From: an uncultured Candidatus Rokubacteria bacterium
GTDB lineage: Bacteria; Methylomirabilota; Methylomirabilia; Rokubacteriales; CSP1-6
Assembly: GCA_963789955.1 (NCBI GenBank)
Contig: CAWBMV010000034.1
Location: forward strand, 352,001 to 416,000
DNA length: 64,000 nt
Direction of reading: 5' to 3'
Within the stretch, counting starts at the first letter, position 1, and each line of letters begins with the position of its first letter. Below are positions 61,033 to 64,000 of the stretch, piece after piece. Position numbers and translations under genes: made by a program. The notes beneath the pieces are model-generated. The model saw nothing but the letters and a program-made list of their open reading frames with translations, ran no database searches and was not told the DNA's origin.

Positions 61033-62407
61033 ATGGCGCGCCCCGTCGTCCTCGTTGTCGATGACGACCCCGGCGTTCGGGAGTCGTTCCGGCTGATCCT
61101 CGAAGATCACTACGACGTCACCGACGTGCCTGACGGCCCCACGGCGCTCGACGTCGTGCGCACCTCCGCCGTCGATCTCGTGCTCCTCGACATCCGATTG
61201 CCGGGGATGGACGGCATCGAGGTGCTCGAGCGCATCAAGGCCCTCGACGAGGGGATCGAGGTGATCCTCGTCACGGCCGTGAGGACCGTGCGGACCGCGG
61301 TGGCCGCCATGAAGCTCGGCGCCTTCGACTATCTGACCAAGCCCTTCGAGGAGGACGAGCTCCTGTCCCTGTCGCGGCGCGCCCTCGAGCGCCGGGCGCT
61401 CGAGCGCGAGGTCGCGTTCCTTCGCTCCGAGCTGGCGCGCGCGCACGATTCCGACGAGATCGTCGGCCGGCATCCCACGATCGAGAAGCTCCACGGCCTC
61501 ATCGCCCAGGTCGCCCGGACGCCGACGACGGTGCTGATCACCGGCGAGAGCGGCACCGGCAAGGAGCTGGTCGCGCGCGCGATCCACCATCAAGGCCCGC
61601 GGCGTGAGGGGCCCTTCATCGCCGTCAACCCGGCCGCGATCGCCGAGACCTTGATCGAGTCCGATCTGTTCGGCCACGAGCGGGGCGCGTTCACCGGCGC
61701 CCACCAGCGGAAGCTGGGGAAGTTCGAGCTGGCGCAGGGAGGCACGCTCTTCCTCGACGAGATCGGCACGCTCCGGCCCGAGCTCCAGGCGAAGCTCCTG
61801 CGGGTGCTGCAGGAGCGCGAGATCGAGCGGGTCGGCGGCACGCGCCCGGTCAAGATCGACGTCCGGTTCATCGCGGCGACCAACACGAACCTCAAGGAGG
61901 CCGTCGTCAGCGGCGCCTTCCGCGAGGATCTCTACTACCGGCTCAACGTCGTGCCGGTCGTGGTGCCGCCGCTGCGTGAGCGGATCCAGGATGTCCCGCT
62001 GCTCGTCGAGCACTTCATCCGGCGCGACAACCGGCGCTTCCACAAGCGGGTCGAAGGACTCTCGCCGGAGGCGCTCGCCGCGCTCAACGCGTACCGGTGG
62101 CCGGGCAACGTGCGCGAGCTGGAGAACGTCATCGAGCGGTGCGTGGTCCTGGCCGAGGGTCCGATCATCCAGCTCAACGACCTGCCGCTCGATGTGTCGT
62201 TGCCGCAGCAGGCTCACGAAGGTCCGGGCGGCCGAGGCACTCCCGCTCAACGAGGCGACGGATCAATTCGAGCAGCAGATCGTGCTGCGCGTCCTCGAGC
62301 GCGTCGGCTGGAACCTGACCGAAGCCGGACGAATTCTCGAGATCCATCGCAATTCGCTCCGGGTCAAGCTCGCACGGTGGGGGATTCGCGCGCCCGGGCA
62401 ACGCTGA
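61033..62407 (+). CDS. NtrC-family sigma-54-dependent response regulator (frameshift near 62212)
   Basis: VLVVDDD...LLDIRLP receiver, GESGTGKE, GAFTGA, LFLDE, WPGNVREL; HTH (WNLTEAGRILEIHRNSL) in the shifted frame. Confidence 0.92.
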
Positions 62408-62408
62408 A

Positions 62409-62460
62409 CGCCCAGCTACTGGGCGCCCAGTAGCTGGGCGCGCCGCACAATCACTGGGCG
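62409..62460. promoter_or_regulatory. Three 17-bp inverted repeats CGCCCAG-N3-CTGGGCG (candidate enhancer/UAS)
   Basis: 62409-62425, 62424-62440 (these two form a perfect 32-bp palindrome) and degenerate CGCACAA-TCA-CTGGGCG at 62444-62460. Confidence 0.7.
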
Positions 62461-62547
62461 CAGCGCTAACGAAGACGGTGACAACTCACATGAGATTCGC
62501 TATCGAGAAACAGGAACTTGGACGCGAATCGTCCTCGTCGATCGCGG

Positions 62548-62564
62548 CTGGCGGTGGAATTGCT
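62548..62564 (+). promoter_or_regulatory. Sigma-54 (-24/-12) promoter
   Basis: CTGGCGGTGGAATTGCT: TGGC-N7-TTGCT with exact GG-N10-GC spacing. Confidence 0.75.
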
Positions 62565-62632
62565 TTCCGGAATCGCGGTTTCTTCTTCGGGCCCTCATGG
62601 GGAGAGCCCGTCAACCGTCGAGGAGGAAAGCA

Positions 62633-62776
62633 ATGGCGAAAGTGTGGACCGGAATCGTCGTGGTGGCCGCGGTGGTGACGTCGTTCCTGCTCGTGGCCCC
62701 GGTGATCGAGTCGGGAACGTCGGGCTCCACGCAGTTCTTCCAGGCGGTTGGTACCGCTGACGGTGGCGCGGACTAA
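62633..62776 (+). CDS. 47-aa putative exported peptide precursor (below the ORF-track cutoff)
   Basis: SD AGGAGG at 62621-62626, 6 nt before the ATG; MAKVWTGIVVVAAVVTSFLLVAPVIESGTSGSTQFFQAVGTADGGAD, TAA at 62774-62776. Confidence 0.75.
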   Translation: MAKVWTGIVVVAAVVTSFLLVAPVIESGTSGSTQFFQAVGTADGGAD

Positions 62777-62819
62777 CTACTTCAGCATTCCAGACTGGAT
62801 GAGAACGAAGGGGGGCGGT

Positions 62820-64000
62820 ATGCCCCCCTTCAAACTCGTCCTCCTGCTCGGCGTCGTCATCGCCGGCGCTGCAATGACCTTGTTGCTTCTCATCGGCCCT
62901 GCGAGCGTTCGCTCGGGAGCCCAGATCTCGGCCCAGGAGCCGCCGGTGCCCGCAGCCGCCGGGACATATCGGCGGCCGCTGGGCAACGACCCCGAGACGC
63001 TCGACCCGGCGCGCATCAGTGATACGTACGGTCGGTCCGTGTCTCAGCAGATCTTCGATGGTCTCGTACAGTACGACCAGTCCCTGACCATCAAGCCCGC
63101 GCTGGCGCAGTTCTGGCGGGCCACGCGCGACGGTCTCACCTGGACGTTCGAGCTGCGGAAGGGCGTCAAATTTCACAATGGGCGCGAGGTCACGTCCGAC
63201 GACGTGGTCTATTCGTTCACGCGCATCCTGGATCCCCGGACGCGGTCCAACGCGAACGAGTCGTTCCAGCACATCAAGGGCGCGCGTGAGTTCCGCGACG
63301 GTCGCGCCAAGAGCGTGTCCGGCCTCGTCGCGCTCGATCGCTACACGGTGCAGGTCGCCCTCACACAGGCGAACCAATCCTTCGCGTCGGTTGTGGCGAT
63401 CGGCCACGCCAAGATCCTGCCGCGGGACGTGGTCCAAGCGCAGGGAGACGCATTCGGCGCCCAGCCGATCGGGACCGGCCCCTTCCGATTCCTCCGGTGG
63501 GATCGCGGCAAGGAAATCGTGCTCGAGGCCAACGCCGACTACTTCGACGGCGCGCCGCGGCTGAGTCAGCTCGTCTACCGGATCTTCCCGGGCGAGCAGC
63601 ACGACGCGATGTACGAGGAGCTGCTGAAGGGCAATCTCGAGGACGCGCCGGTGCCGCCGCGCGCCGACCGGCGCGCCCTGGCGGCGGATCCAAGCCGGAT
63701 TTACGTGAAGCGTTCGATGATCAGCTGTGCGTTTCTACGGGTTCAACACGCGTACCAAGCCCTTCGACGATCGGCGCGTGCGCCAGGCCATCGTGCTCGC
63801 CATCGACCGCGAAGCGATCATCGACGGCGTGTATTTCGGTCAAAACACGTTCGCGCGCGGAATCCTCCCGCGCGGGATGATCGGCTACAACCCGAAGCTC
63901 GAGGGATATTCGTACGATCCGCAGAAGGCGCGCGAGCTCTTGACCGCCGCCGGGTATCCGGGCGGGCGCGGCATGCCGCCCGTGGCCATCTGGTCCGCGG
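62820..64000 (+). CDS. Family-5 (OppA/DppA-like) peptide-binding protein; runs off the window, frameshift near 63727
   Basis: N-terminal hydrophobic segment, NDPETLDPA, IFDGLVQYD, PALA, LRKGVKFHNG, PIGTGPF, FNTRTKPFDDRRVRQA; alternative start at 62799. Confidence 0.9.
   Translation, partial: MPPFKLVLLLGVVIAGAAMTLLLLIGPASVRSGAQISAQEPPVPAAAGTYRRPLGNDPETLDPARISDTYGRSVSQQIFDGLVQYDQSLTIKPALAQFWRATRDGLTWTFELRKGVKFHNGREVTSDDVVYSFTRILDPRTRSNANESFQHIKGAREFRDGRAKSVSGLVALDRYTVQVALTQANQSFASVVAIGHAKILPRDVVQAQGDAFGAQPIGTGPFRFLRWDRGKEIVLEANADYFDGAPRLSQLVYRIFPGEQHDAMYEELLKGNLEDAPVPPRADRRALAADPSRIYVKRSMISCAFLRVQHAYQALRRSARAPGHRARHRPRSDHRRRVFRSKHVRARNPPARDDRLQPEARGIFVRSAEGARALDRRRVSGRARHAARGHLVR

Follow-up and report, generated by a model that had tools for sequence, protein, structure and literature searches.

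Can a diderm soil bacterium read, through a dedicated periplasmic protein, a peptide that it encodes itself? The question is raised by a stretch of 64,000 nucleotides from an uncultured Candidatus Rokubacteria bacterium (assembly GCA_963789955.1, contig CAWBMV010000034.1; G000:C34:352001-416000), here called the window, in which a small open reading frame (ORF) lies between the genes for a sigma-54 activator and a family-5 solute-binding protein (SBP). A preliminary description of the window had proposed that the small ORF encodes an exported peptide, that the SBP is its receptor and that the activator closes an autoinducing loop. Our comparison of the locus with its relatives indicates that precursor and SBP form a ligand-receptor pair that is real, conserved and undescribed and whose mature peptide can be predicted, and a peptide-pheromone circuit of new architecture in a diderm phylum is its probable role. 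The argument turns on the following features; coordinates with the prefix L001 equal the window coordinate minus 60000.

62633..62776, + strand: 47-residue precursor ORF with a basic/hydrophobic signal-like N-terminus, P-x-x-E, F-Q-A-x-G-x-A and a variable acid/Gly tail
62759..62773, + strand: predicted mature signal DGGAD (residues 43-47), which co-variation suggests is released after Ala42
62820..64000 and on to L001:4467, + strand: family-5 (DppA/HbpA-like) periplasmic binding protein, PF00496, the proposed receptor
63033-63035: specificity arginine of the SBP (column 23)

Peptide tails and the pocket of the proposed receptor change together

The co-variation between peptide and receptor that the preliminary description had called for was found at single residues and was confirmed on new genomes. 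Tail positions are numbered from the first residue after the invariant G-x-A, which is +1. The pattern at +1 was found post hoc in a mirror-tree table and was tested in 94 distinct peptide-SBP pairs: aspartate at +1 occurs with arginine at SBP column 23 in 57 of 58 pairs, glutamate with a residue other than arginine in 21 of 23, and cysteine, serine or asparagine with a residue other than arginine in 13 of 13. Among 497 SBP columns, column 23 scores best (p 4e-16, the next 5e-5), and on a tree built without it ten independent pairs changed in the same sense, none in the opposite sense and one was unchanged (p 0.002). For validation, 60 more regions were fetched, of which 5 held no pair and 32 duplicated earlier loci; the 23 new genomes all obeyed the +1 rule, which had been fixed beforehand (16 Asp-Arg pairs and 7 with neither Asp nor Arg).

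A scan of every position of tail and core in 71 Rokubacteriales pairs extended this pattern along the tail. The best partners were residue 393 for +2 (phi 0.95), 396 for +3 (phi 0.87) and 344-345 for +4 (phi 1.0), and the positions ahead of the tail were invariant or reached a phi of at most 0.82. In the 69 full-length pairs, glycine at +2 accompanies Tyr393 in 53 of 54, serine or alanine accompanies His, Trp, Leu or Ile, and aspartate accompanies Arg; glycine at +4 goes with Val345 in 44 of 45 and any other residue with a non-valine in 23 of 24. Over all tail types, an acid at +2 is matched by Arg393 in 13 of 13 pairs, against 0 of 68 without one, and this match fixes the register of the C-D-G, S-D-G and C-E-G tails. 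A second prediction, also fixed in advance, was read on the full SBPs of 20 of the 23 new genomes (18 with D/E tails; the +1 counts there repeat those above); at the readable loci it held for +2 in 16 of 16 and for +4 in 12 of 12, and there was no test case for +3. Independent pairs in the full-length set gave 9/0 for +1 and 8.6/0.1 for +4 (both p 0.004), and the crossed pairs +1/345, +4/23 and +2/23 showed no association. The window itself obeys the code, as its tail DGGAD is accompanied by R23, Y393 and A344-A345.

Tail and SBP co-evolve, and the comparison of these sequences makes it very probable that the acid/Gly tail is the ligand of the SBP, in keeping with the earlier suggestion of a C-terminal fragment. 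Two other products of the precursor, the released signal peptide (FLLVAPV) and a 20-residue product cut after VIES, were rejected as ligands, since co-variation starts exactly after G-x-A. The kinase of the cassette was compared in the same way. MgrB-like feedback peptides are membrane peptides that act on a kinase, and a peptide of the MgrB/SafA kind could directly tune this kinase, leaving the SBP to sense a peptide from outside; the hydrophobic block FLLVAPVIE, which is conserved beyond an ordinary signal peptide and may have a second role, and the position of the gene under the system's own promoter would both suit it. However, the best kinase columns reached a phi of 0.44-0.62 against 0.92-1.0 for the SBP at the same 43 loci, and the tail tracks the SBP pocket and no kinase column, which leaves this already disfavoured explanation very improbable.

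The binding protein retains an amine anchor and has lost the carboxyl clamp

The SBP model has a predicted local distance difference test (pLDDT) value of 90.8 and template modelling (TM) scores of up to 0.90, and the best PDB sequence match is 8UPI. The protein falls under all NCBIfam cut-offs, reaching 214 of the 1005 bits required for DppA (NF043070). DppA W386, W405 and D408 have retained equivalents (W376 in 60 of 60, W395 in 59 of 60, D398 in 59 of 60), and the SBP family lacks an arginine at the position of DppA R355. According to structural reports, D408 and R355 hold the amino and carboxyl ends of the dipeptide in DppA (PMC8566422, PMC12136057); a kept aspartate and a lost arginine clamp therefore suit a ligand with a free N-terminus and more than two residues. 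In the alignment with DppA, residues 393-398 fall on the strand that closes with D408 and residues 344-345 on the segment immediately ahead of R355. This order of partners would suit a peptide that is held at D398 and extends toward the site of the lost clamp. Residue 23 would line the first pocket. For the residues aligned with column 23 (DppA Tyr25, 8UPI Trp37), the portions of the published accounts that were available contain no statement on ligand contact, and the residues cited there lie 3-5 places earlier in the loop; GbpA Arg33 was rejected as an equivalent of column 23 on account of the alignment offset.

The nearest solved structures are transport SBPs (24-30% identity), as might be expected if the SBP were a nutrient sensor for environmental oligopeptides to which the small ORF is linked by descent alone. 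Linkage alone cannot give position-specific, charge-complementary and repeatedly switched pairs with negative crossed controls, and we regard this explanation as hardly credible. A second SBP clade of ~40% identity, which served as a negative control, has no adjoining peptide, activator or kinase in 15 loci (L152-L166), and in the two loci read an ABC permease lies directly beside it or within a few kb. Two apparent SBP-kinase fusions, P0121 and P0122, seem to be products of reading through a frameshift and were left out of the counts.

When the SBP (60-row alignment) was co-folded with residues 18-47 of the peptide, the score was 0.51 and that of the best control 0.00. Of 157 solved pairs 116 attain the mark applied, as do 2 of 215 mismatched pairs, but only 18 of the solved pairs and both mismatches do so at 0.60 or under; the runs share at least 68% of contacts, with a partner pLDDT of at least 41 and no interface given. 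Of the co-folding check proposed for the peptide C-terminus, the rise above controls thus stood, and the support that it lends is weak: the pass may reflect memory, since peptide-SBP complexes are solved, and the fragment, picked before the register was known, hides the predicted free N-terminus.

The precursor gene is conserved together with its proposed receptor

An SBP orthologue is present in 33 of 41 related genomes, and a peptide gene lies upstream of it in 30 of the 30 orthologous loci fetched, as expected if the small ORF is a genuine part of the unit. The peptide profile matches 122 of 251 Methylomirabilota genomes, in the other order of the class as a divergent form, and is missing from some well-assembled genera (g22 0/10, f13 0/20). 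Most of the 79 peptide loci are labelled as Rokubacteria/Methylomirabilota. The order activator, peptide, SBP, kinase is rigid in both orders of the class, with the SBP next after the peptide in 76 of these 79 loci; of the other three, two contigs end there and one copy has decayed. The precursor ORF is under purifying selection (pN, the non-synonymous measure, 0.16; pS, the synonymous one, 0.48; 90 distinct sequences), and its P, E, G and A are invariant in 90 of 90. We read the invariant blocks as, most plausibly, export and cleavage signals. The peptide family comprises 1857 clusters among 8000 candidates scored, with no Pfam match in the 120 listed. Relatives of the peptide alignment, the SBP alignment and the repeat-bearing subtilase described below were absent from the viral collection, and plasmids gave SBP matches at only 30-35%.

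An acid-Gly motif occurs in the last 10 residues of 105 of 107 peptides, against 82 of 4474 long ORF ends. Such a tail might be a chelator or probe, with the SBP sensing a metal-peptide complex or depletion of the peptide in the manner of NikA/CntA-type family-5 proteins; Cys at +1 in one family would agree with this, as would the acid-Gly repeats of the sister subtilases, two of which also carry PF00353. The acids at +1 and +2 are, however, each matched by an SBP arginine, so that they are engaged by the pocket and not free for metal, and the ORFs beside the cassette of the window, read by eye, include no metal transport genes. A chelating role is therefore improbable.

Tails are diverse: the 94 pairs contain 25 tetramer types, and in the genus of the window 16 genomes have 9 different tails. 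They are often common to several genera, DGGG occurring in 22 of the 94 pairs, and paralogous cassettes within one genome differ in tail in the four genomes seen (G025, G190, G233, G032). One family has 2-5 tandem precursor copies. Arrays of 3-5 or more precursors, ~215 nt apart behind one promoter, were seen at L045, L050, L133, L134 and L142, and in family f4 most tails start with Cys and end in Trp. Two loci, L041 (G025:C423) and L051 (G028:C53), contain two tandem SBPs with an extra regulator/kinase, and their second SBPs may read other tails. A decayed cassette (enhancers, promoter, frameshifted peptide and SBP remnant) lies at L121:1860-2400 next to an unrelated ORF of 1031 residues; the bin carries the label Bryobacteraceae.

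A sigma-54 promoter and a membrane kinase frame the pair

The remaining features of the cassette are listed below.

61033..62407 (end approximate), + strand: NtrC/AtoC-type sigma-54 activator (REC, AAA+ with GAFTGA, HTH_8), from ORF reading and domain matches
62409..62460, no strand assigned: three palindromic enhancer sites, GC[AC]CA-N5-TG[GT]GC, 104-139 nt ahead of the promoter
62549..62564, + strand: sigma-54 (-24/-12) promoter, TGGC-N7-TTGC
62588..62610, + strand: conserved leader hairpin with a CTC-A.GG-GAG core (pattern in 44 of 92 loci)
62620-62626: Shine-Dalgarno (SD) sequence GAGGAGG
62797..62841, + strand: G/C hairpin in the peptide-SBP gap, over the SBP ribosome site and start (-33.3 kcal/mol)
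L001:4464-6357 (G000:C34:416464-418357), outside the window: membrane kinase, transmembrane-sCache_3-transmembrane-HAMP-PAS-HisKA-HATPase
L001:6354-7502: soluble hybrid kinase after the membrane kinase, in many, not all, cassettes

These results bear out the anatomy given in the preliminary description: the regulator has a receiver, a sigma-54 interaction domain and HTH_8, and the three 17-bp palindromes, the spaced -24/-12 promoter, the SD sequence, the 47-residue ORF and the OppA/DppA-family SBP all lie where they had been placed. The sensor kinase expected past the window edge follows the SBP directly, with sCache, HAMP and PAS domains; the SBP ORF runs 467 nt past that edge and its end overlaps the kinase start. 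The neighbours within the cassette are the activator, the SBP and the kinase, with no Opp permease, and among ORFs of at least 120 residues over the following 20 kb, which were read by eye and not with a permease hidden Markov model, no OppBCDF permease/ATPase was seen.

The palindromes lie at 62409-62425, 62424-62440 and 62444-62460, the first two overlapping by 2 nt. They are the only three perfect matches to the motif in the window, and even one perfect match arose in just 3 of 5000 shuffles of the enhancer region. They are also the top 3 of 28 genome-wide matrix hits, a ranking that is partly circular because the matrix was built from congeneric loci; only 2 of the other 25 hits have a promoter-like site nearby. 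With one mismatch allowed, at least one site is present in 57 of 80 homologous regions and at least two in 38, against 7.5% of shuffles. A sigma-54 element precedes the peptide start in 82 of the 89 loci that have 400 nt or more of upstream sequence (distance 74-113 nt where found), as anticipated for small ORFs behind sigma-54 promoters. It is likely that the SBP-kinase-activator loop acts on its own promoter. The hairpin over the SBP start, whose purine-loop-pyrimidine pattern recurs in 60 of 90 loci, is likely an attenuator that would hold the receptor below the peptide.

Three further observations concern regulation. A conserved AAACA-N4-CTTG-like element at 62508-62520, ~40 nt before the promoter and seen by eye in many orthologues, resembles the consensus of an IHF site. 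At G000:C30:17886 (- strand) a sigma-54-like promoter with one perfect enhancer-like site precedes a small secreted protein, CHRD-like by eye, and is a possible single-site member of the regulon. A paralogue of the activator, 62% identical, at G000:C34:790311 (L032:2282-3724) lies directly behind a gene for what looks by eye like a DegP/HtrA-type protease, and is a candidate for a second output or a processing link.

Proposed mechanism and the case for a signal between cells

We propose a series of linked steps. The activator would bind the palindromes and fire the sigma-54 promoter of the peptide-SBP-kinase operon. Guided by its signal-like N-terminus, the precursor would be exported, and a cut behind the invariant G-x-A would yield an acid/Gly tail of 4-9 residues (DGGAD here); peptides of this size are small enough for porins. 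The SBP would bind the free N-terminus of the tail at Asp398 and read +1 at residue 23, +2 at 393, +3 at 396 and +4 at 344-345, a step for which the comparative evidence is strong. The loaded SBP may then signal to the sCache domain of the kinase, which would set the phosphorylation of the activator, as gene order and the LuxP-LuxQ, CBP-ChiS and AioX-AioS systems suggest, and the feedback loop would be closed with species-specific tail types (pherotypes).

Whether such a loop serves communication is a separate matter, and we lean towards a signal that acts between cells. The tail could instead stay in the periplasm of its producer as a cell-autonomous gauge, reporting export or protease activity or the leakiness of the outer membrane. 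A private loop would also yield ligand-receptor co-variation, the tails are rich in Gly and often recur in several genera, and the sole enhancer-bearing promoter found is that of the cassette. By contrast, selection on signal identity and dose accounts better for the tandem precursor copies and for the way in which ligand and pocket switch together time and again inside one genus, and paralogous cassettes carry different tails; a gauge is thus rather unlikely.

Several results weigh against a pheromone circuit built on this pair. The whole-sequence mirror-tree of mature peptide against SBP gave a rho of 0.04 over 40 loci. The exceptions at +1 are two E tails paired with R23 and a D tail paired with F23; the +2 link has just 4/0 independent (starred) pairs (p 0.125), and the +3/396 link is weak, with 2/0 independent pairs and no validation case. 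Co-variation, moreover, bears on binding and not on signalling between cells. No second promoter with at least two enhancers was found, as the one of 291 sigma-54-like genome sites that qualifies is the cassette's own. The distance from the hydrophobic core to the G-x-A site is ~20 residues, which is far for cleavage by signal peptidase I. No processing protease was identified, and the subtilase family of the sister system described below was unseen in 251 genomes (E<=1e-50). The 24 RNA runs contained 5-19% of the words, and the RNA contigs (4 runs) are mostly activator domains of other organisms and are uninformative on transcript, level, strand and ends.

Relation to known signalling systems

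Gene-encoded peptide pheromones are textbook knowledge for Gram-positive bacteria. One of the closest likenesses is to Rap-Phr/CSF of Bacillus, where a short exported precursor supplies a C-terminal pentapeptide bound by a family-5 protein (8ARE, OppA-PhrE); the present precursor fits that type in architecture and co-variation, with export and cleavage predicted. The extracellular proteases that cut proCSF are Epr, AprE and Vpr (PMC8767453). The systems differ in that Opp takes up Phr, whose targets are the Rap proteins of the cytoplasm, whereas our cassette has no permease and no RRNPP (TPR) protein; instead a dedicated SBP reads the sequence, followed by a membrane kinase and a sigma-54 activator, in a diderm host.

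The relay resembles LuxP-LuxQ-(LuxU)-LuxO of Vibrio, where a stand-alone periplasmic SBP and a membrane kinase serve a signal that the cell makes itself (PMC8050422). Both of these proteins, and the sigma-54 activator LuxO, have counterparts here. LuxP, however, is a Peripla_BP_4 protein that binds the metabolite autoinducer-2, whereas the present SBP belongs to PF00496, family 5, with a gene-encoded, variable ligand. The NCBIfam comparison gave a hit to NF041946. In CBP-ChiS (Vibrio) and AioX-AioS-AioR (Agrobacterium) the ligands come from outside (chitin oligomers, arsenite) and, in contrast to the present cassette, the unit holds no precursor gene. CBP is a family-5 SBP that controls the kinase ChiS, and AioS, which has an sCache-like sensor, is served by AioX (PMC8050422).

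PrgZ/TraC of Enterococcus is likewise a dedicated family-5 pheromone receptor, with 4FAJ among the structure matches. In Enterococcus the pheromones originate as signal peptides of lipoproteins and are taken up to reach PrgX; in our cassette it is the tail that co-varies with the proposed receptor, and not the signal region, and a kinase accompanies it. In agr/ComCDE the peptide binds the kinase directly and the operon includes a dedicated processing/export protein, whereas the present cassette shows no tail-kinase co-variation and has no such processing gene. DppA, HbpA/GbpA and MeAmi_SBP (8UPI) agree with our SBP in fold, at TM 0.86-0.90, and in the Trp/Asp pair that binds the amine (10.1101/2024.02.22.581678), and differ in their identity of at most ~35%; the present SBP has no C-terminal Arg clamp, has sequence-specific pockets and serves no transporter.

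The literature searched, for most papers by listing and opening of the abstract and for PMC8050422, PMC8767453, PMC8566422, PMC12136057, PMC3295651, 10.1101/2024.02.22.581678 and 10.64898/2026.03.20.713087 by passages, gave no description of this cassette or of such a circuit in Rokubacteria/Methylomirabilota, although small-protein catalogues in supplements may list the ORF. Nor did it give an SBP-kinase system with a self-encoded peptide ligand, and the passages of 10.64898/2026.03.20.713087 say nothing on this circuit. The statement that no sigma-54/OppA-type peptide circuit has been described in a diderm soil lineage is upheld within these sources. The parts are familiar singly, and their joining falls outside every known system examined. 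Co-variation names both the ligand (DGGAD) and the specificity residues, so that a synthetic pentapeptide and a single purified protein would be enough to test the signal of an uncultured phylum. If the proposal is true, a normally promiscuous peptide-binding fold has been turned into a sequence-reading receptor, and the code would predict which soil species hear each other and offer orthogonal peptide channels for Gram-negative hosts.

A sister system carries acid-Gly units in a secreted subtilase

In a quick tree (46/61 rows) the SBP of the window falls in a 100%-supported clade with SBPs of another lineage. Among five distinct sister loci (L174 = L175), a subtilase lies directly or nearly upstream of the SBP in L173, L174 and P0123 (a read-through); L176 has two subtilases 3-5 kb off on the other strand, and L172 has none upstream. 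An sCache_3 kinase is close by in L173, L174 and L176, that of L173 being 42% identical to the kinase of our cassette over 266 residues, and a hybrid regulator, not a sigma-54 activator, follows in L173 and L174. The subtilase family comprises at least 267 clusters, the few named ones being Nitrospinota, Nitrospinae or Tectomicrobia, and atlas searches returned only 'hypothetical protein' and generic S8 clusters. Acid-Gly pentapeptide units (DGGGD, DSGGD, DAGGD, GEGGD, GEGMA) occur in 109 of the 113 loop-insert subtilases among the 120 listed, and the L173 subtilase contains GTADGG. Verbatim identity of tails with these repeats was rejected (37 of 106, below the mean of 66 for shuffled inserts), and the compositional likeness alone stands.

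These loci provide a lead that the same receptor module may stand behind a different exported carrier of acid-Gly units. Such a subtilase (L173:3585-10327, L174:4072-13485, L176:152-14031, P0123 and P0330-P0451 are repeat-bearing, secreted examples) may be a protease with its own built-in signal repeats. We tentatively extend the proposal, at somewhat less than even confidence, to a widespread undescribed class of diderm peptide quorum sensing, with unmodified acid/Gly tetra- to nonapeptides, a position-by-position code in a family-5 SBP and an sCache kinase relay; the signal would come from a 40-48-residue precursor in Methylomirabilota and from tandem repeats in a self-releasing secreted subtilase in the sister lineage (relatives named Nitrospinota/Tectomicrobia). 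The SBP of P0123 has Arg in place of the family's amine-binding Asp, and further SBP subclades of the same clade (P0169-P0204) may define more peptide systems.

Assembly quality and neighbouring genes

The genome is 87% complete, and several frames in and beyond the window are broken. The activator HTH lies in another frame owing to one extra base near 62214; because RNA contigs of relatives lack this base in 3 of 4 runs, the break is most likely an assembly error. The SBP is frameshifted at about 63722 and the kinase near L001:4781, where RNA contigs of relatives (1 run) have one base missing at the break; the SBP and kinase frames are intact in most orthologues. With dnaK and lon (51207-56831) also frameshifted, the pattern across the window points to long-read indel errors in the assembly, and the breaks in activator, SBP and kinase are taken as such. 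Divergent from the activator, a comM/YifB-like Mg-chelatase ATPase gene (59384-60871, - strand) is a neighbour kept in many Rokubacteriales cassettes, and just to its left, at 58421-59375, lie two secreted-looking ORFs with no Pfam match, a Pro-rich one of 226 residues and one of 84 residues with two Cys.

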